Assembly (NCBI RefSeq): GCF_964213995.1
Contig: NC_135826.1
Location: 31,868,001 to 31,932,000, forward strand
Length of the DNA: 64,000 nucleotides
DNA from: Mustelus asterias
Taxonomy: Eukaryota
Direction: 5' to 3'
The notes under the pieces: generated by a model
What the model saw: the letters and a program-made list of their open reading frames with translations, nothing else
What the model was told of the DNA's origin: nothing
The model's database searches: none
Shown here: piece after piece, positions 38,701 to 64,000 of the stretch
How positions within the stretch are numbered: the first letter of the stretch is position 1
How the letters are laid out: the number at the start of each line of letters is the position of its first letter
Position numbers and translations under genes: made by a program

Positions 38701-41700
38701 CATTTCCATCAGAGTGCATTAGTACTGCAGTTGGTATGAAGATTAGAAGCTCCATATAGTGGTAGAAGACGGTATGACTGGCCATATCTCAAGACTCATA
38801 CGTGAACCTCACATTCTGTGGTCCAACGCAGCAGGGTGGTTTTGTACCCAAAGCCGACAAACTGCAGGGAGTGTCATTAAAGTCCACTTTAACATATCAA
38901 CTAGAGAATAGTAACAGAATGATAGGCAGCAGGTCAATAGAAAAGCATTTATATTGGGCACACCTTATTAACAGTAAAAACAGTATCAAAAAAAACAATG
39001 CCCATCTTATAACTAAAGACAATAACCAATCTGGGTCAGCAGGTTCTAGATACATGTATCTGTGAACAAGAACATGTGAATATCCAGGTTCTTGCCTGTA
39101 CCAGGATTTGGTTGCCAGGAGTATTATTCTCACATCTGGTATCTTCATAAAGACTCAGACTAATGCATGCCGATTGGCTAATGATCTAGGTTTTTGGATC
39201 TTTTCTAATCATTCCTATCCTCTCATAAAAACACAAGAAATAAGAGAAGTAGGCTATATGACTTGAGTCAAGTCCACCATTCAATAAAATTATGGTGATC
39301 TTCCAACTTAATACCATCTTCCTACATAATCCCCATATCTCTTGATTTCCTTAATATCCAACAATCTGGAACAGTTATTAGCCAGGGCATTGAAAAATAC
39401 ACCGGCTCTTCGCATGGGATCCTGTACAGCCATCTGAGGACAGAGATGTTGTGATTAAATGCTCCAAAATGGAAGGTCAATGGTGCAGCATTATTTCTGT
39501 TGTGTTGGAATGTCAGCCAGCCTAAATTATGAACCTGGAACAATTTGGTTTGGGGGCAATAGTTCTTATATCTCTCAGCTGAGGTTGTTAGCTAACCCAC
39601 TCAACTACTACTGTTAACTCATATCTGTTTAATTTTTTTTTTCTTTTTCAAATATGCAACCATTTCTTTTTTAAAGTCCATTATGAATTCTGCCTCCTCC
39701 CAATATTTCTCAACAACCCGTGATATACATTGTTTGATAACTACACCCTCTTGGGGATGATGAGCCTGTTTTATTTAAATCCCAAGTTTAAGATGTTACA
39801 ATTTAATATCTTATGCATCTCGCATTTCAAACATTGAAAAATAACAAAGATTGAATGTTTTGCAAGAGTGGAGAGCACAAAGACGCAGTGAAAAACTTCT
39901 AATACAATATGTAGAAATTAAAGACACATTTGCCTTTATTTTTATGATTAAAAAGGATTGTAATCCACTATTTGGTAAATAGTGAGACTCTTCCCTCCCA
40001 AGGACCTGGGTGTATTTTGTTTGTATTTAGTACCATTTACTGAAGTTGGTGAAGGAACAATGGAGGTAAACTTGGGTCATCTATGTTAATGTGAACTGTT
40101 AAGATTTTGGTCTCTCTAACTACCCAGAAAAGTGAATGATGATCTCCTCGAAGTGCAAGGTGAAGGGCGGAGAATGAAGAGGGAAGATGACGAATAGACA
40201 GAGGCAATACTACTCCACTCCCATTCCTATAATTACCTTTAAAAAATTATTTGCCCTACTTTCCAAACCCAACTGTGAAATAAATTAATTTCCACACTAT
40301 TCAATTTTTTAAACCTTTGTTCCAATTTTCCTTACAGCTGAACATAACTGGAAAAACTACCTTTTCTGAATGTGCAATAATTGTAAACTTAAGTTTACTG
40401 GACTTGCATAAGACATAATTAAAATAACTAGAACAGTATGTACTGAACCTTTGCCATTGTCAGAGGTTGCATCTTTTGCTTTTCTGTTTTGACTGGGGGA
40501 TTTTTCATTTTCCTAGAAGAGACAAAAACCAATATACATGTTTAATATATGTATTCAATGGTCAATCAACGCAGGTCATTTATGCAGCACCATCTTAGAA
40601 ATGGTCAACAAATCTATTTATGAATGGTGATATTTGCAGGTTGTGTTTTCTCTGCTACAGGCCAATAATCTCAGTTTCCTGGCTGCTGGTCTAATCATAA
40701 AAAAAATCTTGAAAAGTAATAATTGCTCTTTAAAACAAAAAATTTGGTTCATCAATTAAGACAATGATCATCAATTATTTCAAAGAATTTGAAAAAATCT
40801 GCTAAGTTAATTTAAGAAATAAAAATCACCATAACAAGATTCAAGTCACATTTTATATTAGATGGTTTAATAGATGTCAAACAGTTTATTTTGCTAATAT
40901 CCAAGTTGCATTTTGGCTCTGAAAAAAAACTAGAAATTTCAGCTTCGGATTTTGAGAATATTTTTCAAGAGGACAGAACCATATAGCACTTCTCAAAGAA
41001 AAAAAAACACCCACAATTCAAGGATTAATCAAATATTAGATCTTATGGCACCAACTTACATTTATATAGCACCTTAAATGCAACAAAATAGCCCAAGGCA
41101 CTTCATGTGACACTAGACTGCATAGAGATATTGGGGCCAATAGCTTAGTCAGAAAGTAGTCTTCAATAGGATTAAAGAGTGGAAGATAAGTTTATGGAGA
41201 GAATTAAAGAACTTATGGCCTTGGCAGAAGTGATTAAAGGTCAGAATTGGAGGTGCTCTGCTTGGTACAGCAAAAGTATCTTAGCTCATGTGTAGGTTAT
41301 CAGAATGCAAAATATACAGATCTCAGACTTGGCATAATTTTATACCCTAATAAGATAGGATCTACTTGCAACAATCTCCGAGTTTTTAAAGATATGAGAC
41401 ATTTGCAACTTAGTAACTGCTAATGTCATCTCATCTCATCAGATGACTATTTAATTGGTTTATTAAACAACGGTATTAATATATAAACATTGCCTCTAGC
41501 GTGTATTTCATCAGCCACATTATCATCATAGAAATCATAGAAACCCTACAGTGCAGAAGGAGGCCATTCGGCCCATCGAGTCTGCACCGACCACAATCCC
41601 ACCCAGGCCCTACCCCCACATATTTTACCCACTAATCCCTCTAACCTATGCATCCCAGGACTCTAAGGGGCAATTTTTTTTTTTTAACCTGGCCAATCAA

Positions 41701-44700
41701 CCTAACCTGCACATCTTTGGACTGTGGGAGGAAACCGGAGCACCCGGAGGAAACCCACGCAGTCACGAGGAGAATGTGCAAACTCCACACAGACAGTGAC
41801 CCGAGCCGGGAATTGAACCTGGGACCCTGGAGCTGTGAAGCAGCAGTGCTAACCACTGTGCTACCGTGCCGCCCATTATGCTACAAATATAAAACTATCA
41901 TATGGAAATAACAAGTCACTTAATACCCCAAACTTACAAGCATTTTTAAACTGCACAAAAATTAAACCTTGATTAAGCCAAGGACCATTCCTTTATACTT
42001 AATTATATTTTGCAGCCTGAACAAAAGATACATTGTACATTATATAGTGTACACGACTTCTGTCCTTACTATTTGCAATTACCTCAGATGATCTGCTGCG
42101 TTACATAAAGTCTCATTGAAACAAAAAACAAAAGGCAATTGTTGTAGCAGAAATTCCACTATGAAAAGTTTCTGGAATACTTGTTAAAAAATGTGGGCTA
42201 ATAATCTCAGCAACACAAGAGCTATGAGGCCCATCTACAGTTTGGGACACCTACTTGTTCAGACAATCGTGCACACAAACTACACTGCACATGACCTTTT
42301 ACCTTATTCATAAATATTTAAGGATCAACATAATGTGACCACAGCAAAAAACACTTCTAAGCACAAGCAAATTTCCACGCTAAGAATCCATCTTTTAAAA
42401 CAGGCTGATCGCTGAACATTTCAACTATGTCCTTGTTCATTTCCCCAATCTGTCCACTATCACCCAGGGCCAATTTTACCAAAACTTCGCACCCAAAATC
42501 GCGGTAAAGTTGGGCGTCAGGCCTATACCGCGACCTGCACCCGATTCAGAGCAGATCACGGCTTTACCAACACCCGATTCGGGTACGGCTCTGGCCCGCG
42601 CCCGAATCGGGCAGCCCAACAATTTAAATGCATTAGCATGCATTTAAATCGACTGAATGAGCCGCGCACTCAACTCTACCACCAAATCCCACTTTATCAT
42701 CTTCTGGTCCGTTCTGGACCCGTGCTGTAAGCGACCTGCAGAATAAAAGTCCGAAGTGGATTTCTATTCTGCAGGGGAACCTCCGAAGCCCATCCTCCTC
42801 GACCATCCTTCGCGGACCCCCCCGCTAACCACCCCCGCAGATAATGAATGGTACTGGTCGATCTTCCTGGTGTTATCAGCACTGTAACATCAGGAATGGC
42901 TGCCGACACCAAGGATATAATTTTTAGCATAAGCAAGGCTTACATGCAGAACCCTAATGCCATTATCCTTTGTATCCAAGATGGTTCAGTAGATGCTGAA
43001 CGCAGTATTGTAAATGACTGGGTGAGCCAGATGGACCCACAACGCAGAAGGACCATCTTTGTGTTGACCAAAGTGGATCTAGCTGAGAAAAACCTAGCCA
43101 GTCCAAGTCGGATTCAACAAATTGTGGACGGCAAGTTGTTTCCAATAAAGGCTTTGGGTTACTTTGCAGTTGTTACCGGTAGAGGCAACACCAATGAAGG
43201 TATTGATTCCATAAAAGATTATGAAGGAGAGTTCTTTCAGAGTTCAAAATTGTTGAAGACAGGGATGCTGAAAGGACATAAAGTGGCAACTAAGAACTTG
43301 AGCCTAGCAGTTTCAGACTGTTTCTGGAAGATGGTGCGCGAGTCTGTGGAACAACAGGCTGATGCATTTAAAGCTACTCGCTTCAACCTTGAAACTGAAT
43401 GGAAGAACAACTATCCTCGGCTGAGGGAACTCGACAGGAATGAACTATACGAGAAGGCAAAGAATGAAATTCTGGATGAAGTGATCAGCTTAAGTCAGGT
43501 TACTCCAAAACACTGGGAAGAGATTCTACAAAGGAAACTGTGGGAAAGAGTCTCTACACATGTGACAGAGAATATTTACCTTCCTGCTGCCCAGTCTGTG
43601 AATTCAGGCACATTCAATACCACAGTGGACATCAAGCTCAAGCAGTGGACTGACAAACAGTTGCCTCACAAAGCAGTACAGGGTTGCTTGGGGAACCTTG
43701 GAGGATGAATTTGCTCGATTTATGTCAGAGCACAAAGGGAAGGACCATGATTATATCTTTGACAAACTAAAACATGCTGTTAAAGATGAAAGTATAAAAT
43801 GTCACAGATGGGATGAGCAGGCTGAAGACAGTCTGAGAGTCATCCAGCACAATGCTTTAGAAGATCGTTCCATATCTGACAAACAGCAGTGGGATGCAGC
43901 TATCCATTTCCTGGAAGAAACCTTGCAAACCCGTCTTCGAGATACTGAATCTGTAATTCGTGATATGGTGGGGCCAGATTGGCAAGAAAGGTGGTTCTAC
44001 TGGAAATCACGGTCTCCAGAACAGCATATTCGAAATGAAACCAAAACCGAACTGAAACGGCTGCTAAAAATCAATGAGGAACATACAGCTTATCTTGCTA
44101 ACGATGAAGTTACAACAGTTCGTAAAAACCTGGAGGCCAAAAATGTAGATGTGGACACCATTCTGATTAAAGGTACTTGGCACCAAGTTTACCAAAAACA
44201 CTTCCTAAAGAAATCGTTGAACCATTGTAATCTTTGCAGAAGAGGTTTCCACTATTACCAAAGGCATTTTGTAGATTCTGAGCTTGAATGCAATAACGTT
44301 ATCCTGTTCTGGCGCATTCAGCGAACGCTAACTATTACAGCAAACACACTCTGCCAACAGCTAACAAATACTGAAGTGAGACGCCTCGAAAAGAATGTGA
44401 AAGTAGTGGAGGATTTTGCTGAAGACAATGCTAAAAAAATTCAACTGTTGACAGGAAGGTGAGTTCAACTAGCAGAGGACCTCAAAAGGGTTCGTGAAAT
44501 TCAACCGAAGTTAGAAGTATTCATTGAAGCTCTTCATCAAGAAAAATAACACTGTCTCTCGTCACACACTGCCATACATGCCTCCTTCCTCCCCCCCTCT
44601 CTGCTGTTTTTTTCTTTGACGCCCGGGCGCGCTGCTTCTGATTTCTTTTTGAACTGCGCATGCGCAGTTCAGAGCTCCGATCAATCCGGCAGCGCTAAGC

Positions 44701-47700
44701 CCCGCCCACTGCACGGGTTGGACTGGAGCCGGCAAAAAGCGTATGGGGGCACTGGAAAGAGGATTCCAGGCTCGGGTCTGTATTACAACCAGATTTGGCA
44801 CTTAGACTCAAAATGGTAAAATCAGGCCCTCAGTGTCCATTTCTCCTCTGGATCCTTTCCCACAAAGGATTGAAGTTTTAACTTCCTGACTGCGCCAAAT
44901 AGAGAAGAATGCTAAGAAAATGATAGCCATTCATTGGCACACCTGCTGCAAGCATTGGTTTAGCATTGCTCTTCCCCTAGGCAAGGGTAGAAAAATTGAG
45001 ATTTGCAGTATGAACAACAATGTCTCTTCTCCTCCTCCCACACAACTGAAGAGTTTGATGGCATGGGCTCCCACACAAATGGAACTATTTGAAGGGCTGA
45101 TGGAATGGGGAGAGGGATCATGCTACATGAATGCACTTTCTTCCAGTAAATGTACATTTCATGTAGTGAAACCCATCTCTTTCTACATCCCCTCACCAGG
45201 ACATATTTTGTTCATGCGACAGGGGTCCCCCACATAGTTGCTTCTCTCCAGGAGGGGCTGACGCTATTTAAGTGCAATCAAGCACTTAACTGGCCGGTGT
45301 TAGACCTCCCACACAATCAAGGCTCCAATAGGGCAGAAATCTCACCCCCAAGAGTTGTTGACCAGAGGTCAGCAGTCTCCATTGCCAGCGGTGCCACCAG
45401 GAGCAGTGCCTGCTGCTTTTAACTCTCTGAAGCCTTCACCAGTGACCATTGCTGGGTTCCTAGAGACAGATGAATGGGGCAGGATGGGGGTTATGCACAC
45501 GTGAGATTAAATGCAAGGGCAGATTGTGCCCAGTGCCAGGTTTCTCACTCAGTCACCAAATGCCTGTAAACATTATGAGTCATTACAAAGTTATAGGCAA
45601 ACGTGATAAGAGTTTGCCATGCAAATTCCATCCACTACCTGGGAAATGAAATAAGGTGGTAAATAACATACAAATTCTGGCAATTCACCCCAAATTTAGT
45701 TAGTCTACCTGCATTCAAAAGAAAGGTCCAGGCACTGCAGTACATGCTACTTCGCTAAATGATTATTTTTAATCCAAATAACCTACAGAAACCTGAAATT
45801 CCATTTGAATCCATATTACATATCAGTGAGTGGCAAGTTAAGGATTAGATGATGCTTTGTTACTTCACAAAATATTGTTGGCAGTGTAGTCATGGCAAGT
45901 AGAATATAACTAACTTAATTTGTCACCCCAAACATTATATGGGCTATGCTGAAGAATATGGGTCCTCTTTAAAGCAAACTTTTAAAGCAAGCATTTAAGG
46001 TCATTTTAATTTAATTCTGAATGTCTGAATAGTTTCCCCCCAAAATGCCTACATCACTAAATGTTTTCAACAACAACATACATTAATTCTGTGAAAGTTT
46101 ATACTCCAGTTTGCTGCTGCTCTTGAAGGAATAAACCGGTCTCCACTTTTGCTTGGCGATGACACTGGTGAATTTGAAGGCGTTAATGTTCTTCTAACTT
46201 CTGATATCTGAACAAAATCCAGAAATGGAGAATGGTGTTAAATTAACATTAAAAATACAAAATCTGTAATAAAGTTAGAGCACAGCAGTATTAACCTATT
46301 CCATAGGTTCCATAACCTATTCCATAGGTCTGATCTTGCAGCATTAGTTTCTATTAGGATTCTTGAGTTTCAGTTTAGAAATAAAAACAACTGCAATACT
46401 AGACATCTGAAGTAAAAGAGTGCAAGAGAGATTAGTTTGATACATTTTCCTTGTACTATGAACTTCAGCTACTGCATTTTATAAATGTTTGAGAGAGCTT
46501 TTGGTGAGCAAAGAGTTTGTTGGGTTGGGTTCTAATGGAAGATGACAGCTTACATCCATTACGTTAGAAACTGAGCTCCCAGTCATTCGAAGCTTTTGAG
46601 AAAATGGGCCCCGCATTTAAATCACAAAGTAATACAGCGCGGAAAAGCTGCTTCGGCCCATCAAGTGTGCACCCACAGTAATTCCCTCTAAGATTGTACT
46701 CATCCGATTTTCCAGCACTTGGCCCATATCCTTGAATATGATGATGCTTCAAGTGCTCATCCAAATATTATAAGGTTTCCAGCCTCTACTACCTCCCAGG
46801 CAATGCATTCCAGATTCCCACCACCCTTTGAAGTGAAAAATAATTTTCTCAAAACCCTTCTGAATCTCCTGCCCTTTATGCTAAAACCATGTCCTCTCAC
46901 GATTGACACTCCCCAACCATTATGGAAGTAGGATCATTGATGAAGCAGCTGAAGATGGTTGGGTCTATGACATTACCTGGAGCAACTCCTGCATTTATGT
47001 CCTGGAACTGAGACGATTGACCTCCAACAATGACAACCATCTTCCAACCAGCAGAGAGTTCCACCTTTCCCAATACAGTTTTGCTAGGGCTCCTTGATGC
47101 CACACTCGGTCAAATGTTGCCTTGATGTCAAGGGCAGTTCCTCTCACCTCACCCTTGTAGTTTTTTATTCATTCATTCATTGGACATGGGCATTGCTGGC
47201 TGGCCAGCATTTATTGCCTATCCCTAGTTGCCTTTTAGAAGGTGGTGGTGAGCTGCCTTCTTGAATCGCTGCAGTTCAGTTGTTTTGTACATGTTTGAAC
47301 AAAGGTTGTACTGAGGTTAGAAGCTGAGTGACTCTAGTGGAACCTAAACTGAGCTTCAGTGGCCAAGTTCTGCTAAGCATGTGCCGCTTGATAGCACAGT
47401 TGTTGACCCCTTCCGTCACTTTACTGTTCGCGAGAAGACTGATCAGGTGGTAATTGGTCAAGTTGGATTTATCCTGCTTTGTGTACACAGAACATACCTA
47501 GCAAATTTCCACATTGCCAAGTAAATGCCAGTGTTATAGCTGTACTTGAACAGCTTGCCTAGGGGCACAGCAAGTTCTGGAGCACAAGTACTATTGCTGG
47601 AATATTGTCAGGGCCCACAGCGTTGCAGTTTCCAGTATCTTTGGCTGTTTCTTGGTATATGTGGCCTGAATCAAATTGACCACAAGACTGGCACCTGTGC

Positions 47701-50700
47701 TGCTGGGGACCTCAGGAGGAGGCCGAGATGGATCATCCACTTGGCACTTCTGGCTGGATTGTTGCAAACGCTTCAGCCTTATCTTGTGCATTGATGTACA
47801 ATTTAACAATAAAAGACAGGAAAAAGATTATTTGAAATGACTCAGCTGTGTGCATTGTATTACTAAACTGTGATTGTAATTGTATTACCAAAGAATAATT
47901 TGGACTCTAACCCACCTGCATGACTTAGACTTTGAAACTTATAGTTTAGGATGTAGCTATTATGTATTGACGGTGCATTGATCATATTGAAGGTGTTATG
48001 ACTGGCGTGAGTCAATTGCTTTCACCAAAGATGGGTAAAATAAATCCTGGCTACTGGAGCTAAAGAGGAATAAAAATAGCTCACTGAAATAATCCAACAT
48101 TCAGTTGTGCAGGTTCACAGAAGAAAGAAAATTGAAAGTAAAAAAGACAGAGAAAGAAGTTAGCCCAGATCAGAACTAGCGTCGATCTCTGTCCAAGCTA
48201 TGATAGTAAAGGCTATGTGTAAATTGTAAACTACTGCCTACTAGTTAAGTGTTGTTTTATTATTCAATAAATCCTCATGCGTTACACCGAAATTACGTCT
48301 GCCAACTTCCCGTCTCATCAAGAAATCGAATAAACATTCAAGTAACTCACAAGGTCTTGAAAATATATAATAGGCCAAAATTCGTTGAGGAAAGAGGTTC
48401 ATATTTCACCTGTATTAACAGAAAAAGGGCCTTGTACACAAAAAATGAAGTATCTCTTCTTCCCATTCTTGCAGATACTGACTGACAGGTCTTACTCCAT
48501 GTGTTATCATATATCCAAACTGATCTCCTACAAGGCATAAATAATCAGATCACTGTTCAAATACATATCAAAAGTATGACGAAATTATTTTTAATGATGA
48601 TTTGATGGACTCAGGATTTCTACTCATGATATTTCTTTGGAAAGATTTGTGTGCTCCTTTTGCAGATGACATGATGTTGCTGCCGCTCACCTCTGATGAG
48701 GTTCACTTTACTTAACATCTTGAAAAAAGATTTTGCCGTTGTGATATGCTGGCAGATCCCCCTAGCCGCAGTATTCTGCCTTCATATAGCTCAAGAAGAA
48801 AGTTCAAGGTATTTTTTGGAAAATAAAAGTTATTTGTCTCATTATTGATTTATATTGGTTCATGGATCCTCAATAGATGCCAACTTCTGCCTGGTCACAG
48901 TCCATCAGGATGGGTGCACACTTCTTAACTTAAAGGGTGCAAGTCAAATTGTCAACCTGACTCCCAAATGCTCCATTTACTATGTATCCACTTTAATTGA
49001 TTCCTCGGCTGTAACAAACAGATTAAATTTAATACAATTTTATGATAACATAGACAACTGAAGTGAAAATCTCTACTCTTGTTCATATTCCAATCTCTTT
49101 TACATCGGTCCTATTCATCATTCTGATGTAGTTCCAATGATAGAGTTCATTGTTTACCCAAAGAACAAGTCCAGGACTCCACATCACAAGTACAAGTGCC
49201 CTGTGTTTCTCTATTTTTCATTTTATAGATATATCAAAAGTTCTTTGACAGAGTCTCCATAATATTTCCTGTGAAAATTAAGGATCAGTCAAGAGAACTT
49301 CTTCAATTTTCAAACTTCAGTTGAGCAGTGGTCAAATGGTCAAGTATTTCTTAGTCACTTTACCATCAAATTTCAATGCTAGCACTTTGCTATACCAACT
49401 ATTAAGTTTTTCATTAATACTTTTAGCTATTTTTACTAAATTTATTAAGGTCATAATAAACTGTCAAAAATGCTGTGATCGAACACAATTTTGCTTATAT
49501 TAAGCTGTGGCATAAAGTAGTTCTAAGTACTTTTAAAAAAAGGTTTATGCACATCATTTATAGATAAAGCCAGCTTTACTTTGAATTAACATATACATAA
49601 CTAGATGTGTAGGTTAGAGCGATTAGCAGGCTAAATATGTGGGGTTGCGGGAGTGGGGCCTGGGTGGGATTGTTGTCGGTGTAGATTCGATGGGCCGGGT
49701 GGCCTCTTTCTGCACTGTAGGGATTCAATAGATTCTTATCCATTCTGACTTTTTACCTTAGACTTGAACTTAACGTCTTGTGCGGATTTTTCTCAGATGC
49801 TGTTGGAAAGCTAGGTACAATGTATTGTAGAGTTTTTCACCGTCTACTTGGGTTGCGACCACTTCAAACCAAGGACGTTGGTCAAGAAGGATCCTTCCCT
49901 TTCTAAAGCTCTCTGCTGTTTGCAATGCTGCGTAGATATTCCTCAGGTTTACTACTGAACGTTCCACTATTTTCCACAATGTTTGGAAGAGTAATGGGTC
50001 CATCGTTGCTGTCACCCCTCCAACACTTTTATTAATTTGTGCCACCACAGCAGCATGTTTTCAGTCCACTAGATCCTCCCTTCATACCGCACATCTCTGG
50101 GAACTTAGTTGATTTTTGAACCCTTTTAGCCTTCTTAGAACATTGATGTTATTCATACCAAAATCATTAATTTTGCTTTGATCATCTCTGGTTGGGGATA
50201 TTACTTGTCGTCCCTTGTGAATAAAGAGAAGGTAAAAGAAGTATATTTGATTAATTTAAATTTATTGGCTACCTATTTCAATTGAAATCATGCACACGCA
50301 AACATCTCTCTGTTTCTATTCCTTTTTTATATTGCTGCGTAATTTGAGCCGCTGAAACAGAGGAGCGGTAGGCCATTCAGCCCTACCAGCTTGATCTTCA
50401 CCTCAGCTTGATTTTTCTTCATTTGATCCATTGTCCTTGGTATCTACTGCCTAATATATATATATCTGTGACCTTGGCGTGTCAATTGATTCAACAATCA
50501 TGGGCTGTAGTGATTAAGTGACTGGAGTAGTAATCCAGAGAACAGATTTTCAAATATCCCTTCATTCTCATCTTGAGAATTCGGAGTTAGATTTTTTTTG
50601 AAACATCTGGAAATTTGCAGTCTCAAGGTGACCATGAAGTTCTCTGACTGGTTTGCTGGTATCCTCAAGGAAAGAAAGCGCCACCAGGTCTGACCAATAT

Positions 50701-53700
50701 GTGACTCCAGTTTTGCACTAACAGGTTGACACATCTTTAAGGGATTCATGAAGAAGGCCCACTTCAGGGCAACTAGAGATGGACAATGAATGTCAACTTT
50801 ACCAGTGATGCTCACAGCCCACAAGTAACCTTTTTTCTACAAAATCACGAGATAGAGTAAAATTACGAGAAATAGGAAGGGTCGAGAGCTTCAAGTTTTT
50901 AGGTGTCCAGATCACCAACAATCTGCCCTGGTCCCCCCATGCCAACAGTATAGTTAAGAAAGCCCATCAACGTCTCTACTTTCTCAGAAGACGAAGGAAA
51001 TTTGGCATGTCAGCTATGACCCTCTCCAACTTTTACAGATACAACCAGAAAGAATGCTTTCAATGGTATATCACAGCTTGCTATGGCTCCTGCTCTGCCC
51101 AAGACTGCAAGAAACTACAAAAGATCATGAATGTAGCCCAGTCCATCACACAAGCCAGGCTCCCATCCATTGACACTGTCTACACTTCCCACTGTCTCGC
51201 AAAAGCAGCCAGCATAATTAAGGACCCCATGCACCCTGGACATTCTCTCTTCCACATTCTTTTGTCCGGAAAAAGATACAAAAGTCTGAGGTCACGTACC
51301 AACCGACTCGAGGACAGATTCTTCCCTGCTGCCATCAGACTTTTGAATGGACCTACCTCACATTAAGTTGACCTGTCTCTACACCCTAGCTATGACTGTA
51401 ACACTACATTCTGCACTCTCTCTTCTCCTCTAGAATGGTATGCTTCATCTGTATAACATGCAAGAAACAATACTTTTCACTGTATACTAATACATGTGAC
51501 AATAAGTCAAATCAAAACTTCAATTTTTTGACTTTGGGAAACGTGCTTCCTAACTACACTCCTGAATGGCCTAGCTCTAATTTTAAGATTGTGCTTCCTT
51601 GTTCCATTGCCCCAGTATTTCCATCCAACCTTGATTTTAAAATTCTTATCCTTTGCTTTCAAATTCCTCCATAGCGTTGCATCTCCCTCTAACTTTTTTC
51701 AGTGCTGCAACCCACTAAAATCGCTGTGCTCCTCTAATCCTGGGCTCATGAACTTTGATTTCAGCGGCCATCCCTTTAGCTGCCGGGGCCAATAAAGTCT
51801 AGAATCTCCTCCTTAAGCCTCTGCATCTCCAGTTCTCTCTCCGCTTTTAAGACACTGCTTAAAATCTACCTCTTCAACCAAGTTTTTGGTTTTCTGTCCA
51901 AATAACCCCAAGTGAGGCTCCGAGTCAATTTTGTAAAGTGTCCTTGGACATTGGTAAGGCCACACTTGGAATACTGTGTGCAATTCTAGTCACCCTATTA
52001 TAGAAAGGATATTATTAAACTAGAAAGAGTGCAGAAAAGATTTATTAGGATGCTACTGGGACTTGATGGATTGAGTTATAAGGAGAGGCTGAATAGACTG
52101 GGACTTTTTTCTCTGGAGCGTAGGAGGCCTTATAGAGGTCTATAAAATAATGAGGGGCATGTAGATAGTCAATAACTTTTCCCAAAGGTAGGGGAGTCTA
52201 AAACTAGAGGGTATAGGTTTAAGGTGAGAGGGGAGAGATACAAAAGTGTCCAGAGGGGCATTTTTTTTCACACAGAGGGTGGTGAGTGTCTGGAACAAGC
52301 TGCCAGAGGTCGTAGTAGAGGCAGGTACAATTTTATCTTTTAAAAATGATTTAGATAGTTACATGGGTACGATGGGTAAAGAGGGATATGGGCCAAATGT
52401 GGGCAATTGGGATTAGCTTAGGGGCTTTAAAAAAAAAGGGTGACATGGACAAGTTGGGCCGAATGGCCTGTTTCCATGCTGTAAACCTCTATGACTCTAT
52501 CTATGACTCTATGTTACTATGTTAGGGACAGTAAGAGTTTTACCAACGCTAGGTTGGAGTCCAACAGGTTTATTTGGTAGCAAATGCCATTAGCTACCAA
52601 ATAAACCTGTCGGACTTTAACCTGGTGTTGTTAAAACTCTAACTGTGTTTACCCCAGTCCAACGTCGGCATCTCCACACTATGTTAAAGACACATGGCCA
52701 ATGGTGGAGTCATGAAAATTGGATGAGCAAGAGGCCAGAATTGTGGAATTGGATCAACAAGTGGCTAGAATTGGAGAGCAGAGATCTTGCAGGGTCTGTA
52801 CGGCTATATCTTGTTGGGGATAGGGAGGAATGAGGCTGTGGTGGGAGTTGTGGATATTTTAAAATGAAGCTGCTGCCAGATAGGGAACTCCGTGTAGGTC
52901 GGTGAGCAGTGACAGCAGCAGCTTGCATTTATATACTGCCTTTTAAGACTTATCTAGATAGCCACATGAACGGAGTGGGAATGGAGGGATACAAAAGAAT
53001 GGTCTAGTTTGGACCAGGGAGCGGCGCGGGCTTGGAGGGCCGAAGGGCCTGTTCCTGTGCTGTATTGTTCTTTTTGATACAGTAAAATATTCCAAAGTGC
53101 TTCACACAAGTGTTAGCAAACAAAATATTTTTTCACAGAATTGATGGGTGTAATGTCCTAACTATGTTAGGGGTTGTGGGTCTTAAACAAAAAGACCCAA
53201 AAAGTCCGAAGATGTGCGGGTTAGGTTGATTGGCCATGCTAAAAATTGCCCCTTAGTGTCCTGAGATGCGTAGGTTAGAGGGATGAGTGGGTAAAATATG
53301 TAGGGATATGGGGTAGGGCCTGGGTGGGATTGTGGTCGGTGCAGACTCGATGGGCCGAATGGCCTCTTTCTGCGCTGTAAGGTTCTATGATTCTATAACT
53401 AAAATAAGGGCAATGCCAAGTGCGGTTGACAGTTTTGAGTTTGTGTCAATACACATCTAAAAAATAATTTCCACCTATGTAATATTGATCATCAATTCAA
53501 CGCGTTCATCAAGATTTTAGCAAAGTGCAACGGCCGACGTGAAATTATCATACGATGTTAACTTGAAATGTGAGAAACACTCAATAGTATGAATTTTGTC
53601 TTGCAAAGCTCAGGTTGTATTTGGAGTGAGCATTTTGATTGAGAACAAAAAAAGCTGAGTGCATGATGAAGTTAGACACCAGGATTCCACATTTCCTGAT

Positions 53701-53954
53701 TCAACTTGAGATGACAACACCAGAGGTTGATGAACTGGAGGCTGGACATTTGGAGGTGCTGAGGTTCAGGACAGCCGCGGTTTCACTGACATTTTACTGG
53801 ATGAAATGTTGGTACACCCAGAAAGACACAGCAAGCCAGAGAAAAGTAAATCAAACTAAAACACTAAATGAAACTTAGCACTTACACAAGGGACCATGTT
53901 TTCATTCTGTACATTAATTTGTCGTAAAAGTCGTCGTTCATAGTCCTGATCCAT
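14703..53954 (-). CDS. FZR1: Fizzy-related protein 1 (Cdh1), APC/C co-activator; 13 coding exons, 493 aa
   Basis: Exons 53886-53954, 46082-46207, 40449-40512, 34652-34779, 34109-34191, 31798-31981, 27653-27718, 26273-26375, 21692-21876, 20284-20517, 19485-19589, 17343-17435 and 14703-14744 have GT-AG boundaries and compatible phases and sum to 1482 nt. The protein starts [12 protein letters not shown] and has the C-box DRFIPSR, KLLR, WD40 repeats and the C-terminal IR tail (LFTRIR*). Confidence 0.98.
17343..17435 (-). CDS. FZR1: FZR1 coding exon 12
   Basis: [31 protein letters not shown]. Confidence 0.97.
17713..18054 (-). mobile_element. HE1-type tRNA-derived V-SINE, full length
   Basis: GGGCGGCAC head with Pol III A/B boxes, V-domain, CR1-like tail; CTAGTG target-site duplication. 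Confidence 0.9.
19485..19589 (-). CDS. FZR1: FZR1 coding exon 11
   Basis: [35 protein letters not shown]. Confidence 0.97.
20284..20517 (-). CDS. FZR1: FZR1 coding exon 10
   Basis: [31 protein letters not shown]...HANEL. Confidence 0.97.
21692..21876 (-). CDS. FZR1: FZR1 coding exon 9
   Basis: [16 protein letters not shown]...LASGGNDNK. Confidence 0.97.
23537..23878 (-). mobile_element. HE1-type V-SINE
   Basis: Near-identical to 17713-18054. Confidence 0.9.
23980..24028 (+). repeat. (GA)n/(CA)n microsatellite
   Basis: Direct read. Confidence 0.9.
24260..25430 (-). mobile_element. Degraded CR1 LINE 3' part
   Basis: Remnants of RT and ORF2 C-terminus ([10 protein letters not shown]...KNKEVML). 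Confidence 0.8.
26273..26375 (-). CDS. FZR1: FZR1 coding exon 8
   Basis: [34 protein letters not shown]. Confidence 0.96.
27653..27718 (-). CDS. FZR1: FZR1 coding exon 7
   Basis: [22 protein letters not shown]. Confidence 0.96.
28313..28661 (-). mobile_element. HE1-type V-SINE, older copy
   Basis: Diverged copy of the same head and body. Confidence 0.8.
29653..29680 (+). repeat. Poly-G tract (28 nt)
   Basis: Direct read. Confidence 0.95.
30617..31232 (-). mobile_element. CR1 LINE 3' fragment, same subfamily as 60878-62623
   Basis: Near-identical ORF2 C-terminus ([32 protein letters not shown]) and tail. Confidence 0.92.
31798..31981 (-). CDS. FZR1: FZR1 coding exon 6
   Basis: [39 protein letters not shown]...ACTSQ. 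Confidence 0.97.
32588..33423 (-). mobile_element. Rex1/Babar-like LINE 3' part
   Basis: [42 protein letters not shown] motifs. Confidence 0.88.
34109..34191 (-). CDS. FZR1: FZR1 coding exon 5
   Basis: [27 protein letters not shown]. Confidence 0.96.
34652..34779 (-). CDS. FZR1: FZR1 coding exon 4
   Basis: [43 protein letters not shown]. Confidence 0.97.
35450..35975 (-). mobile_element. CR1 LINE 3' fragment
   Basis: agaacatagaacag tail and [12 protein letters not shown]. Confidence 0.85.
36665..38612 (-). mobile_element. CR1 LINE (second subfamily), 5'-truncated and frameshifted
   Basis: ORF pieces with [25 protein letters not shown]. Confidence 0.93.
40449..40512 (-). CDS. FZR1: FZR1 coding exon 3
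   Basis: [21 protein letters not shown]; tag/gt boundaries. Confidence 0.96.
41524..41874 (-). mobile_element. HE1-type V-SINE
   Basis: Near-identical to 17713-18054; CATTAT duplication. Confidence 0.9.
42467..44829. mobile_element. Non-autonomous TIR DNA transposon (Harbinger/PIF-like MITE) enclosing the OPA1 retrocopy
   Basis: Left end GGGCCAATTTTACCA (42467-42481); right end TGGTAAAATCAGGCCC (44814-44829, reverse complement GGGCCTGATTTTACCA); 3-bp flanks CCA/TCA; GC-rich arms with many palindromes. Confidence 0.75.
42846..44549 (+). pseudogene. OPA1: Processed (intronless), 5'-truncated OPA1 mitochondrial dynamin-like GTPase pseudogene
   Basis: Runs from G3 (MVLVDLPG) through G4 (TKVD) to the native end FIEALHQEK* (44547-44549). 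Lesions: +1 frameshift near 43681, an in-frame codon loss near 44400, and a premature TGA at 44460-44462 (probable CGA>TGA). Confidence 0.96.
46082..46207 (-). CDS. FZR1: FZR1 coding exon 2 (C-box)
   Basis: [42 protein letters not shown]; cag/gtatg boundaries. Confidence 0.97.
46620..47800 (-). mobile_element. Composite of CR1 3' end and degraded CR1/L2-group RT fragments
   Basis: VIVGGQSS...[17 protein letters not shown] and KSN..NY..ISLL remnants. Confidence 0.75.
49605..49730 (+). mobile_element. HE1-type SINE tail fragment
   Basis: gggcctgggtgggattg...gatgggccgg...ctgcactgtaggg. Confidence 0.75.
50870..51515 (+). mobile_element. Rex1/Babar-like LINE 3' part
   Basis: Same family as 32588-33423; tcaaatcaaa tail. 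Confidence 0.88.
51950..52515 (+). mobile_element. CR1 LINE 3' fragment, same subfamily as 36665-38612
   Basis: Matches the reverse complement of ~36670-37220; (CTATGACT)n tail. Confidence 0.9.
52530..52679. mobile_element. Penelope-derived hairpin mini-element
   Basis: Inverted arms 52530-52581 and 52593-52644, followed by ccccagtccaacg.cggcatctccaca. Confidence 0.72.
53200..53396 (+). mobile_element. HE1-type V-SINE, 5'-truncated
   Basis: 3' half only. Confidence 0.82.
53886..53954 (-). CDS. FZR1: FZR1 coding exon 1 ([23 protein letters not shown])
   Basis: ATG at 53954, donor gtaag at 53885; likely acceptor ccag just upstream of 53987. Confidence 0.95.
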
Positions 53955-58723: not shown

Positions 58724-58950
58724 TCTACCTGCAATGTCGGACTGTCCAACGGAGAAACCTCGACCAAAACAAAGGGGGCTTCTGGATGAAGAATCGCCCT
58801 CACATACTAGCCCGTGCCACGGCTTCTCTCAGCTCAAGTATCCAGACCTTTTCTTCCCCCCCCCCCACTCACCCTAACCCAGCCCTGGGGCTCCGCGACT
58901 CCTCGAGCTGTTCAGCCCACAGACAACATGGCAGCCGCACTTCCGGCGCC
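58724..58950 (-). other. FZR1: Probable non-coding first exon of FZR1
   Basis: Lies in the CpG island next to the promoter motifs and ends in a gtaag donor at 58723; TSS not determinable from sequence. Confidence 0.65.
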
Positions 58951-59055
58951 GGAGCGACCGTTACCCATTGTGACGTCACTGAGATTCAAACCGCCGCCGG
59001 AAGTGCGGCCGTTGCCATGGCAACGCGGGGCGGGGGGGTCACCATGGTTACCTCA
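58920..59055. promoter_or_regulatory. CpG-island bidirectional promoter
   Basis: YY1-like CAACATGGC (58924), ETS/GABP CCGGAAGTG on both strands (58938-58946, 58997-59005), CRE TGACGTCA (58971-58978), RFX X-box GTTGCCATGGCAAC (59011-59024), GC box (59027-59035), second X-box-like GTCACCATGGTTAC (59038-59051). Confidence 0.85.
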
Positions 59056-59293
59056 TCACCCTAAACGAAGCGGGTTTAAGATCGAATAAACTTTCCAACG
59101 CCCCGGTCATATATATATATATATTTTTTTTTTGTTCCTAAATCTAAAGAGGCAGGTTTGGTGCCGGGAGTCCGGTTCCAGTTGCTGGTGGTGGGTGTGT
59201 GTTTCGGCCCCAGGCCCCAAGCGGCGGCGGGGGGGGTGAAGCTGAGGACCCCCCCCCCACCACCCACCACCACCACTTCCCAGGTCAGTCAAC

Positions 59294-59455
59294 ATGGCGG
59301 AGGAGACGGTGCTGCCAATGATGTTCCTACTCCTGTTTCTCTTCATGAAACGCCGCGCCGACTACGAGAGTGCGGGCGTGGAGAGGAGGAACGACGCGCA
59401 GAGGAGGCTGAGATTGAGGCAGTATTTCCAGCAGCGCCAGAGGAAAATGATCTTG
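59294..59455 (+). CDS. Coding exon 1 of Harbinger-transposase-derived gene
   Basis: aacATGG Kozak context; MAEETVLPMMFLLLFLFMKRRAD...RQRKMIL (54 codons); phase-0 donor gtaaat at 59456 matches the phase-0 acceptor at 63238. Confidence 0.75.
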
Positions 59456-60877
59456 GTAAATGGGAGAGAGGGAAAGGGAAATTAGAGAAAACAACAACAA
59501 CAACAAACGTGCGCGGGTCACACAAAAGGCAAAAAACTTTCACTCGTCTTTGGCCCCCTAACTCCTGAAAGCAGTGGGTCTCCAATGAACAGGAGAAGAA
59601 CCACTCAAAGCTTGTTCTTGCTCCCTTATCTTGTTCACCCATAGCTGGAGTTTGTAATCCCATTCAGAACCACAATATAAAAGCGAGTGACTTGGCGGGT
59701 GGACGGACGCGTTTTCCTTTTTGTTTTGGATCCAGTTACTTAAGAAAGGGGAGTCTCAAATTAGACCATCGATACGATTTAAATAGCGTCAGGTATGAAA
59801 CACATGGCGACCTATTTTTGAAATACTCCACAATCGTGACTGATATTGAGATGGGCTTTATTAGCTGATCCTAATCAGGTTAGGATTCTTTTTAAGCAGC
59901 GGGGTGGTTAGAACATTGGAGTAGCTGACCAGAAAGTGATGGAAGCAAGCACTGCAACAGCTCCCGAATAGGAAAAAGATAAATATTGGATGAGATGTAA
60001 GTAAAAGATGCGAAGGAAAGATAGGGGAATGGCACCATGTATGTGTTTCTTTCAGAAAACTGGAATCGGTGTAATGGACCACATAACCTCCTTCTGTACT
60101 ATAAAATTCAAACCTTCTTTCACAAATATCTGCTCTCCCCCCCCCCCCACCCAGATGTAAAATGTATTGTTTAAATTATTCAGAAACTGGATGGACTGTG
60201 GAGGGAGAATAAGTACATAGAGCAACTAGGCTACTCGATTAAGATTAGATCAAGTTTCATTTTCTATGTGCTGATTGGAAGGGTCCTGTTAAATTAAAGT
60301 TGGCATATAGGAGCGTGCTTCTTACATTTATTTCAGTTATTTTTGTTGTTCTGTGAGCTATTGTCAGGCTAGAATGTAGAGAACTTAGTGGTGCAGTCAG
60401 CTGTAATCTGGAAGTAACTGGTTCTGACATTGGGTGTTTTTTTCATCTCAAAGTTTTAGATGTAAAGTTTCTTCTGAATTTTAGCAGACTACATATGAAT
60501 ACAAAAGCTGAAGAATAACTTAGTTTTCCAACCCCTATTACCAGACAAAAAGTGATTTGATACAGCTATTACCATTTAGGTGTCACAGTGTAGCTTTAAA
60601 TTAACAACTGAACTGTCAATCTTTCTGTTTATGATTTTCAAAAGTTGAAAAACTAATTATGCATTAAGAAATTATCGAACTTTAAAAGCTAAGCAAAATT
60701 GCAGAGGCTTTATTAAACCAGTTTGTATGCCAATCCAGTTTGATTTTTCCCTCTAACCATATTTGAGTGTTGATTGAAACCTCCATATTTACATTTGGGA
60801 TGGAGTTTGTGCCTGTAAGAAATTAACTTTCATACCAAAGTTTAATCCCCTTAATTGTAAATTTCTGGGTGGAAACA

Positions 60878-62623
60878 GTAGTGGGAACTTGTGTATGGAG
60901 TCAGTAGAGATAGGCGAGGTGATGAATGAATACTTTTCTTCAGTGTTCACCAAGGAGAGGGGCCATGTTTTTGAGGAAGAGAAGGTGTTACAGGCTAATA
61001 GGCTGGAGGAAATAGATGTTCGGAGGGAGGATGTCTTGGCAGTTTTGAATAAACTGAAGGTCGATAAGTCCCCTGGGCCTGATGAAATGTATCCTAGGAT
61101 TCTTTGGGAGGCAAGGGATGAGATTGCAGAGCCTTTGGCGTTGATCTTTGGGTCCTCGCTGTCCACGGGGATGGTGCCAGAGGACTGGAGAATGGCGAAT
61201 GTTGTTCCTCTGTTTAAGAAAGGGAATAGAAATGACCCTGGTAATTATAGACCGGTTAGTCTTACTTCGGTGGTTGGTAAATTGATGGAAAAGGTCCTTA
61301 GGGATGGGATTTACGACCATTTAGAAAGATGCGGATTAATCCGAGATAGTCAGCACGGATTCGTGAAGGGCAAGTCGTGCCTCACAAATTTGATAGAATT
61401 TTTTGAGGAGGTAACTAAGTGTGTTGATGAAGGTAGGGCAGTTGATGTCATATACATGGATTTTAGTAAGGCGTTTGATAAGGTCCCCCATGGTCGGCTT
61501 ATGATGAAAGTGAGGAGGTGTGGGATAGAGGGAAAGTTGGCCGATTGGATAGGTAACTGGCTGTCTGATCGAAGACAGAGGGTGGTGGTCGATGGAAAAT
61601 TTTCGGATTGGAGGCAGGTTGCTAGCGGTGTGCCGCAGGGATCAGTGCTTGGTCCTCTGCTCTTTGTGATTTTTATTAATGACTTAGAGGAGGGGGCTGA
61701 AGGGTGGATCAGTAAACTTGCTGATGACACCAAGATTGGTGGAGTAGTGGATGAGGTGGAGGGCTGTTGTAGGCTGCAAAGAGACATAGATAGGATGCAA
61801 AGCTGGGCTGAAAAATGGCAAATGGAGTTTAACCCTGATAAATGTGAGGTGATTCATTTTGGTAGGACAAATTTAAATGTGGATTACAGGGTCAAAGGTA
61901 GGGTTCTGAAGACTGTGGAGGAACAGAGAGATCTTGGGGTCCATATCCACAGATCTCTAAAGGTTGCCAGTCAAGTGGATAGAGCTGTGAAGAAGGCCTA
62001 TAGTGTGTTAGCTTTTATTAACAGGGGGTTGGAGTTTAAGAGCCGTGGGGTTATGCTGCAACTGTACAGGACCTTGGTGAGACCACATTTGGAATATTGT
62101 GTGCAGTTCTGGTCACCTCACTATAAGAAGGATGTGGAAGCGCTGGAAAGAGTGCAGAGGAGATTTACCAGGATGCTGCCTGGTTTGGAGGGTAGGTCAT
62201 ATGAGGAAAGGTTGAGGGAGCTAGGGCTGTTCTCTCTGGAGCGGAGGAGGCTGAGGGGAGACTTAATAGAGGTGTATAAAATGATGAAGGGGATAGATAG
62301 AGTGAACGTTCAAAGACTATTTCCTCGGGTGGATGGAGCTATTACAAGGGGGCATAACTATAGGGTTCGTGGTGGGAGATACAGGACGGATATCAGAGGT
62401 AGGTTCTTTACGCAGAGAGTGGTTGGGGTGTGGAATGGACTGCCTGCAGTGATGGTGGAGTCAGACACTTTAGAAACATTTAAGCGGTTATTGGATAGGC
62501 ACATGGAGCACACCAGGATGATAGGGAGTGGGATAGCTTGATCTTGGTTTCAGATAAAGCTCGGCACAACATCGTGTGCCGAAGGGCCTGTTCTGTGCTG
62601 TACTGTTCTATGTTCTATGTTCT
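60878..62623 (+). mobile_element. Young 5'-truncated CR1 LINE (RT and C-terminal ORF2) in the intron of the Harbinger-derived gene
   Basis: Uninterrupted 550-aa ORF with [33 protein letters not shown]; tail (TTCTATG)n. Confidence 0.95.
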
Positions 62624-63238
62624 AAATGAATGGAGTTCAAGTTTACCCTTGGTTGAGTTTAAGAAAAAACAAATTCTATCACATTCAATTGCAAGCTGGT
62701 TAAAAAACCTTTTTAAAAGTTGTATACATCTTCAAGTTCTGCAATGTTTTCTTGAAAGATAAATCTTGTTGATAGGTCCAAATTACAATTTTTCATTTCA
62801 TGATTCTTTATATTAATAACTTTTTAAACAAAATCTTCAAAATGTGGACAAATGCCTTCAATGAACACACTCTAAACTGTATAGCTTTATTGCATTGTGC
62901 ACTTAAAATTGTTTTAAATTAGCTCAAGTTGTCCCCCTGGGTCTAATGACCTCATTGTCAGTGATTTAAAGTAAAAGTTATTTATTTTTAGTTATCATGT
63001 TAACAAAGTATCCATCCAAGAGGAAATTTTAACTTCGATTTGTGTTACCATATCTAAAGTGTGTCTTTATTTTTTAATACCTGTGCAATGTTCATACACT
63101 ATGATCGCAGCATGCCTCAGCAGGAAAATGTTGTCAAAGTATATGGCTTTTGTACTATAACCATTAAATAAAAAAATCTTGCAGTATTGCTGAATATTTA
63201 AGGAGTATAATTACAACAATATTTTTCTTTGTTTGTAG

Positions 63239-64000
63239 ATGGTGATGGCACGTGGAGGTAGTAGGTGTAACTGTCGGACAAGAATCTGGTGTAAGCCACG
63301 AAGTTCAGACTGGTGGGAACGTGTGGTTATGAAGGACTTTCAGCCAAATGATTGGCTGGAAAATTTCAGAATGTCTAAGGAAACATTTTTCCATATCTGT
63401 AGCCAGCTGAAACCTATGGTTTCTCGTCGAAATACTCACCTTCGTCCTGCGCTGCCCCTGGAAAAAAGAGTTGCCGTAGCATTTTGGCGACTTGCTACTA
63501 ATGTGGAATATAGAACTATTAGTCATTTGTTTGGGATAGGCCGATCAACTGTTTGTAAATGTGTAAGAGAAGTATGCCATGCTATTGTGTCTCTCTTAAA
63601 GCCTCTGTATCTTAGGATGCCTTCCAATCAAGAATTTGAAACAATAGCCCAAATGTTTGTTCAGAAGTGGGATTTTCCCCAATGTGTTGGTGCCATTGAT
63701 AGCTGCCACATACCCATCATTGCCCCTCCACAATATCACAAAGATTACCTAAACAAAAAGGGATGGCATTCAGTTGTGTTACAAGGTGTAGTTGATGACA
63801 CTGGGAATTTCTGGGATGTCTGTACTGGATTTTCTGGGAGTTCTCTTGATACAAAAAATCTGAGGAGTTCTGATCTATGGAGAATGGCTATTGAAGGAAG
63901 GTTGTTCCCTGATTGCTCAAAAAATATTCTGAGAACACCAATGAAATACCTACTAATAGGCAGCTCTTCGTATCCGCTACAGGAATGGCTCCTGAAGCCG
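63239..64000 (+). CDS. Harbinger/PIF (DDE_Tnp_4, HARBI1/ALP1-like family) transposase-derived protein, exon 2, runs off the window end
   Basis: Polypyrimidine tract and tag acceptor, then 254 open codons: WLENFRMSKETF, LEKRVAVAFWRLAT, LFGIGRSTV (HTH), FPQCVGAIDSCHIPI, YLNKKGWHSVVLQGVVD, GFSGSSLD, LIGSSSYPLQEWLLKP. By recall it is not close to HARBI1 itself. Confidence 0.92.
   Translation, partial: MVMARGGSRCNCRTRIWCKPRSSDWWERVVMKDFQPNDWLENFRMSKETFFHICSQLKPMVSRRNTHLRPALPLEKRVAVAFWRLATNVEYRTISHLFGIGRSTVCKCVREVCHAIVSLLKPLYLRMPSNQEFETIAQMFVQKWDFPQCVGAIDSCHIPIIAPPQYHKDYLNKKGWHSVVLQGVVDDTGNFWDVCTGFSGSSLDTKNLRSSDLWRMAIEGRLFPDCSKNILRTPMKYLLIGSSSYPLQEWLLKP

Follow-up and report, generated by a model that had tools for sequence, protein, structure and literature searches.

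The 64,000-nt stretch of Mustelus asterias contig NC_135826.1 analysed here (the window) ends inside a gene derived from a Harbinger transposase, which almost certainly has been domesticated as a host gene. In this shark the order is FZR1 (minus strand), a CpG island, the Harbinger-derived gene (plus strand) and DOHH (plus strand). The features are collected in Table 1, and residues are numbered on the 425-residue protein. Reading of the sequence places the ATG of the gene at 59294. A two-exon frame of 54 plus at least 254 codons, interrupted by a phase-0 GT-AG intron, had been proposed in an earlier note on this DNA, and its coordinates proved correct. Within the window exon 2 supplies 254 open codons; it meets no stop just past the window and continues to a TAG 354 bases past the window end (contig position 31932354); joined, the two exons specify 425 amino acids. 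An identical protein is already present as a gene model (P0129) in the protein collection, and several sharks and the chimaera have 425-residue models with the same exon junction.

Table 1. Features of the FZR1–DOHH interval in Mustelus asterias (window positions unless marked as contig positions)
Feature	Position	Strand	Details
FZR1 coding exons (C-box, WD40)	17402..53954, at least to 17402; ATG 53954	-	WD40_CDC20-Fz, E 4.8e-15
Putative non-coding FZR1 exon 1	58724..58930, upstream end approximate	-	donor GTAAGT after 58724
CpG island with symmetric, bidirectional-looking promoter	58860..59520		GC 0.58, CpG observed/expected 0.82
Harbinger-derived gene, coding exon 1	59294..59455	+	54 codons; hydrophobic stretch, then basic/Gln-rich segment
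Harbinger-derived gene, intron	59456..63238	+	phase 0, GT-AG, 3783 nt; donor GT 59456, acceptor AG 63237-63238
Reverse-transcriptase frame of 5'-truncated long interspersed element (CR1-like) in the intron, outside the gene product	60778..62541	+	RVT_1
Harbinger-derived gene, coding exon 2 (helix-turn-helix and DDE_Tnp_4 domains)	63239..64000 and on past the window	+	371 codons in total
First catalytic position, D208, kept	63698..63700 (GAT, AIDSCH)	+	sequence and alignment
Second catalytic position, S296 for D	63962..63964 (AGC, GSSSYP)	+	sequence and alignment
DOHH, four coding exons	contig 31943038-31952820	+ (strand of the Harbinger-derived gene)	ATG 10.7 kb past the stop of the Harbinger-derived gene

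Contigs presumed to be RNA span the 59455/63239 joint in two of four runs (X1 and X3, from two studies), skipping exactly 3783 nt with GT..AG ends. In run X3 a single contig of 2083 nt extends from 6 nt ahead of the ATG through both exons into the 3' untranslated region. These spliced contigs back the layout of exon 1, and the same N-terminus is found in other vertebrate records. The non-repeat part of the intron has zero contig cover in the runs examined, and its reverse-transcriptase frame (587 codons, 60778–62538, E 3.4e-32) has heavy, multi-copy cover. The insertion noted there earlier is borne out by its RVT_1 domain; the label CR1 depends on features of its 3' end which we take to be those of that family. 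In the protein, PF13359 (DDE_Tnp_4) matches residues 207–370 (E 1.2e-28, 100.1 bits against a cut-off of 24.8) and PF13613 (HTH_Tnp_4) matches residues 125–175 slightly below its cut-off (E 7.3e-6, 25.9 bits against 27).

The gene is single-copy: searched at the DNA level, the 3.68-Gb genome returned one match, the gene itself. The next-best protein match in the same genome is 33% identical (149 of 3568 candidates scored), and 29 further loci belong mostly to one multi-copy family with the Asp-Asp-Glu (D/D/E) triad intact, many of them with stops. At least 148 other Harbinger-like matches occur in this genome, many with open frames. A young, near-identical, D/D/E-intact Harbinger family with open frames was also observed on small contigs (L004, L006–L008, L021). 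As the earlier note had stated, no terminal inverted repeats, of the 25–50 bp that flank an autonomous Harbinger element, are apparent: among the longest pairs listed for two overlapping 9–10 kb stretches, the 25 longest of 56 and the 25 longest of 68, no convincing pair spans the gene, those that do being G/C runs or short matches. Nor was a Myb gene found among 72 neighbourhood proteins (frames of at least 120 residues from the 78 kb downstream and of at least 130 from the window), a survey which short exons could escape.

Exon 2 gave 500 matches at E 1e-20, of which 120 were listed; these, with seven cluster members and four transposases from the shark's own genome, make up a tree of 131 rows. 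In it 103 rows form one clade (support 99), which a 27-row IQ-TREE analysis recovers. Cartilaginous fish branch first and then come tetrapods, coelacanth and ray-finned fish, by and large the order of the species tree; the members are chimaera, sharks, rays, coelacanth, ray-finned fish, amphibians, turtles, crocodilians and birds. Divergent frog members came in through a profile search, as did a second group of teleosts (herring, knifefish, whitefish). This second group lies inside the clade (P0257, P0286, P0289, P0303), evolves faster and may be a retained genome-duplication copy. Shark and chimaera proteins, both of 425 residues, are 84% identical, and that of coelacanth is 65% identical. 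In the alignment 92 columns are at least 95% conserved, and the exon differences of run X3 comprise 12 synonymous and 5 non-synonymous changes of 17 listed (21% synonymous expected, p 1.8e-5). The dN/dS comparison proposed in the earlier note thereby takes the form of a rough pN/pS of 0.11 from at least 17 differences, not a formal dN/dS, and indicates purifying selection.

One DNA match, spliced contigs, a deep clade and the excess of synonymous changes uphold the earlier view of a domesticated single-copy host gene. It might still be argued that this is a recent or even mobile Harbinger copy which came to rest beside FZR1 by chance, given that Pfam cannot separate the protein from a transposase and that databases label it putative nuclease HARBI1 or ALP1-like. 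We consider this hardly credible in view of the single copy, the lack of terminal inverted repeats or of a Myb frame nearby, a clade resembling the species tree and the same neighbour in birds. The best explanation is that the gene has been inherited at the FZR1–DOHH locus since before the split of cartilaginous and bony fish, the Harbinger transposase having presumably been captured as a host gene before that split.

The earlier note had raised a possible loss in mammals. There is no mammal or squamate among the named rows of the listed matches, of the protein clusters or of the profile search. This is weak evidence, since 380 of the 500 matches fall outside the list and a cattle gene list puts a gene LOC100295989 between FZR1 and DOHH (PMC11112828, in part). 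Two further groups of proteins deserve mention. Hagfish Harbinger-like proteins (P0073, P0177) have a broken second Asp and an altered HD motif; they lie outside the clade, near zgc:113227-like proteins, and are perhaps a further domestication. Proteins of sturgeon and bowfin (P0095, P0297, P0433) pair off separately close to the clade's base and may represent another conserved Harbinger-derived gene.

In the shark protein the catalytic triad reads D/S/D. The first Asp is kept and the usual GD..YP motif reads GSSSYP, both as described from the window, and the third position, which lies beyond it, has changed from Glu to Asp (D334 in the alignment). S296 is common to all eight cartilaginous-fish rows and the D-to-S change is confined to them. 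Of the 103 orthologue rows 80 have a broken triad, as against 2 of the 28 rows outside the clade (26 intact), and the breaks differ: caecilians have G/D/E, otocephalans mostly G/D/D, higher teleosts mostly A/E/E and cartilaginous fish D/S/D. Three frog records also are without the first Asp. Four triad changes fall on the 27-row tree, three of them inside the clade, and there were at least three separate breaks. The HD dipeptide, present in 25 of the 28 outside rows, is found in none of the 103.

Coelacanth, sturgeon, bowfin, gar, tarpon, the eel group, salamander, turtles, gharial and birds hold D/D/E, in 23 of the 103 rows. Because of these the D-to-S change is not a mark of domestication, and of the earlier suggestion that nuclease activity was lost only the D/S/D of this species stands. 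The ancestral gene could have been a functional metal-dependent nuclease whose activity persists in birds, turtles, coelacanth and gar, with a non-catalytic form only in certain lineages, for instance sharks and most teleosts. The spread of D/D/E over deep branches and a fold that is intact in the model would suit such a history. Replacement of the HD dipeptide in all 103 rows, and at least three triad breaks tolerated with the gene kept (the three frog records lack the triad too), make it quite unlikely. Because the gene survived each break of the triad, a function independent of cutting is the probable one, and we hold it with some confidence.

An AlphaFold2 model (mean predicted local distance difference test score, pLDDT, 87.4) renders exon 1 as one long helix (residues 6–59), followed by a low-confidence linker, helical and helix-turn-helix regions and a domain of catalytic type. 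In structure the model comes closest to transposases such as piggyBac (Foldseek E 3.8e-4; Z 9.7, root-mean-square deviation 4.8, 237 residues aligned). By sequence no solved relative was found, only one chance match (E 0.6), and residues 1–80 retrieved only unnamed short proteins from the ESM Atlas. The N-terminal exon had been described as adding a hydrophobic stretch and an Arg/Gln-rich helix. It is not an addition by the host: D/D/E-intact relatives outside the clade share the hydrophobic-then-basic start, and since they start alike exon 1 comes from the element itself. The idea that exon 1 spans a membrane was rejected; the best 19-residue hydropathy is 1.46 in the shark and 0.3–0.8 in five orthologues, with no conserved membrane helix.

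Modelled as two copies the protein scored 0.53 as a predicted homodimer, against 0.00 for the best of three controls. As for the mark applied to this score, 21 of 30 solved pairs attained it and none of 23 single chains did (microbes; for animals 7 of 16). At least 59% of contacts recur between runs, with pLDDT of at least 79, and the predicted interface involves residues 73–96 and 137–153 rather than the exon 1 helix. We suggest that the protein would act without cutting DNA, as such a homodimer.

A non-cutting subunit of this kind might serve host restraint, by pairing with active transposases or absorbing their Myb proteins, and would be dispensable where Harbinger died out. The predicted dimer surface, a dispensable triad and the abundance of Harbinger-like matches in the shark genome are what one would look for under restraint; in addition, mammals are reported to lack Harbinger elements (PMC9392472 and PMC9179366, in part), and the gene is in no named mammal row. 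We nevertheless regard restraint as unlikely. Evolution has been slow and conservative, with no arms-race pattern, the resident shark Harbinger family is only 25–35% identical, and ALP1 and ALP2 do not bind Ping proteins according to the relevant part of PMC7282668. No squamate appears among the named rows, yet squamates carry Harbinger elements (PMC12262214, in part).

We place first, though tentatively and by analogy, a non-cutting chromatin role in which a Myb/SANT-type partner would carry the homodimer to chromatin. It is put ahead because nuclease–Myb contact is kept across domesticated pairs of the family: the part of PMC7282668 available describes the interaction as retained in all three pairs examined, HARBI1–NAIF1, ALP1–ALP2 and HDP1–HDP2. 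Plant nuclease–Myb pairs act in chromatin complexes (excerpts of PMC7282668, PMC9710019 and PMC9392472). By the same analogy the protein might have a Myb partner, be imported into the nucleus and play an accessory part in a chromatin complex in the way that plant ALP1 and HDP1 do.

Elsewhere in the shark genome four Myb_DNA-bind_5 exons (L044–L047) score far above the rest and are candidate partner exons, each a single exon only. L044 and L046 presumably resemble MSANTD4 and FSBP.

The CpG island from which the gene starts stands out from a window-wide background of GC 0.40 and CpG observed/expected 0.33. Its promoter holds an inverted pair of 19-nt sequences with CCGGAAG cores (58934–58952 and 58991–59009) flanking TGACGTCA at 58971, a perfect 14-nt palindrome at 59011–59024 that is the sole copy within the window, and a YY1-like motif at 58925. 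We take these as candidate sites for ETS, CRE, RFX (X-box, the palindrome) and YY1, going by their consensus motifs. A head-to-head arrangement with FZR1 had been described. The opposite strands stand; a start of FZR1 in the same island depends on the putative non-coding exon, which contigs cover in two of the four runs. A skate-like record reads across the same promoter motifs into exon 1 (E 0.003), and N-terminal extensions of bird models bore no clear resemblance to the promoter of the shark (best E 0.026).

FZR1 encodes an activator of the anaphase-promoting complex (APC/C), and co-regulation with it had been suggested; this reduces to the shared promoter, nothing in the protein pointing to APC/C. 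A KEN box occurs in none of the 103 orthologue rows and no destruction box is invariant. The commonest RxxL, at residue 123 just ahead of the helix-turn-helix, is present in 79 of the 103 and is probably structural rather than a degron.

The earlier note gave DOHH as the divergent neighbour of human FZR1. In the shark it has not been replaced by the Harbinger-derived gene but follows on the same strand, its start having a CpG-rich patch of its own (GC 0.62, observed/expected 0.80). In two bird-cluster records (P0229, P0231) the orthologue is joined, shortly ahead of its normal end, to DOHH and then stops. The tail of 104 residues is what DOHH's first coding exon yields when its frame is shifted; it matches the shark exon at E 4.5e-28 (tblastn). 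Two bird DOHH proteins are compatible with 75 and 77 of 91 codons, compared with at most 40% in 200 shuffles. Because these records splice the orthologue into DOHH, adjacency to DOHH holds in birds, and read-through splicing there is likely from the sequences. A table in PMC12649552 lists FZR1 and DOHH, together with three LOC genes, close to a single marker on chicken chromosome 28.

Fused Harbinger–DOHH proteins were sought and rejected: none was found at E 1e-30 among 4181 candidates of 721–2055 residues (651–720 lay outside the search), and exon 1 matched two longer proteins, neither a DOHH isoform. Acceptor-like AGs were seen 84 nt (in frame with exon 1) and 89 nt ahead of the shark DOHH ATG; a first exon common to the two genes is a candidate on this sequence. 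DOHH and GNA11 proteins occur within bird and teleost 90% clusters, a hint of chimeric models that may be clustering noise and is not counted.

Perhaps the locus acts mainly in cis, read-through into DOHH setting DOHH or FZR1 output and the protein being secondary. The two bird records and the symmetric promoter speak for such a role, and the strong constraint on the protein (the 92 conserved columns and the excess of synonymous changes) and a shark DOHH with its own CpG-rich start speak against it; we judge it improbable. The Myb-partnered role accordingly ranks ahead of Harbinger restraint, then residual nuclease activity, then the cis role. A composite may also be drawn: a pan-gnathostome, non-cutting dimer subunit that restrains Harbinger or Myb proteins, a second domestication besides HARBI1, with at least three separate losses of catalytic residues, a duplicate in some teleosts, co-transcription with DOHH in birds and loss in mammals after Harbinger had gone. 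All of this together would be unlikely.

As a whole, an ancient domesticated gene whose product is a non-cutting homodimer brought to chromatin by a Myb/SANT-type partner is our best explanation, with a probability of roughly 0.6. Several points weigh against it. With D/D/E kept in 23 rows, loss of catalysis may not extend across the family. The 72 neighbourhood proteins include no Myb-domain frame, and no partner candidate emerged on this contig among 150 of 1811 candidates, those scored for PF13873. The dimer prediction may owe its score to solved transposases, memorised or similar, and conservation at the interface does not exceed that over the remainder of exon 2 (0.75 vs 0.72, p 0.28). 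The 17 exon differences are a partial list (289 further table rows), so that pN/pS is rough, and the runs are contigs only presumed to be RNA. Fixed position is indirect outside this shark as regards FZR1: DOHH adjoins in this shark and the two bird records, and for the promoter there is the skate-like match.

Elsewhere in the window an intronless, frameshifted OPA1 retrocopy (42848–44462, plus strand) lies inside an FZR1 intron, antisense to FZR1, with Dynamin_N and OPA1_C domains (E down to 1.8e-106).

The gene is apparently an undescribed second Harbinger-transposase-derived gene of vertebrates besides HARBI1. No paper describing it was found in the full-text literature, subscription papers and supplements being outside that scope. 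The passages seen of PMC9392472 and PMC9710019 set HARBI1, as the transposase-derived vertebrate gene, beside five Myb-derived ones; those of PMC9392472 name no earlier cases in vertebrates other than HARBI1 and NAIF1, to which they add four Myb-derived genes. A domesticated Harbinger close to TRIM genes of reptiles is described as a younger squamate locus (PMC12262214, in part). A second ancient transposase-derived gene, if true, would give the MSANTD proteins a partner candidate that has been missing, and the database label putative nuclease HARBI1 or ALP1-like would be corrected for these proteins. Being present in zebrafish and galliform birds the gene is testable, and as a single orthologue whose triad is intact in some lineages and broken in others it offers a natural series on which the role of nuclease chemistry after domestication can be asked.

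HARBI1, with its partner NAIF1, is likewise a single transposase-derived host gene that arose near the jawed-vertebrate base and whose function is largely unknown (PMC9392472, PMC9710019, both in part). It differs in being conserved into mammals, whereas the present clade has no mammal among named rows. HARBI1 is also shorter and stands at another locus, unlike the 425-residue gene between FZR1 and DOHH. The two are probably distinct, a separation drawn from the mammal range with trees built without a HARBI1 sequence; a pattern search for HARBI1 in the shark genome found nothing and is uninformative. ALP1 (with ALP2) and HDP1 (with HDP2) resemble the gene as domesticated Harbinger nucleases which have lost DDE residues and, in the text seen of PMC7282668, work through partner proteins within chromatin complexes. 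They are separate plant domestications, however, while in the shark-type gene the triad was lost in some lineages only, and the database name ALP1-like denotes family likeness, not orthology. MSANTD1–4 and NAIF1, of the same superfamily and of similar domestication age (PMC9392472, in part), are candidate partners but derive from the other (Myb) gene of the element. Autonomous PIF/Harbinger elements, including the zgc:113227-like group, share helix-turn-helix and DDE_Tnp_4 domains, the same N-terminal layout and, for the nearest D/D/E-intact relatives, 42–47% identity; the gene differs from them in having no terminal inverted repeats, Myb gene or HD dipeptide, in being single-copy and in its vertical inheritance.

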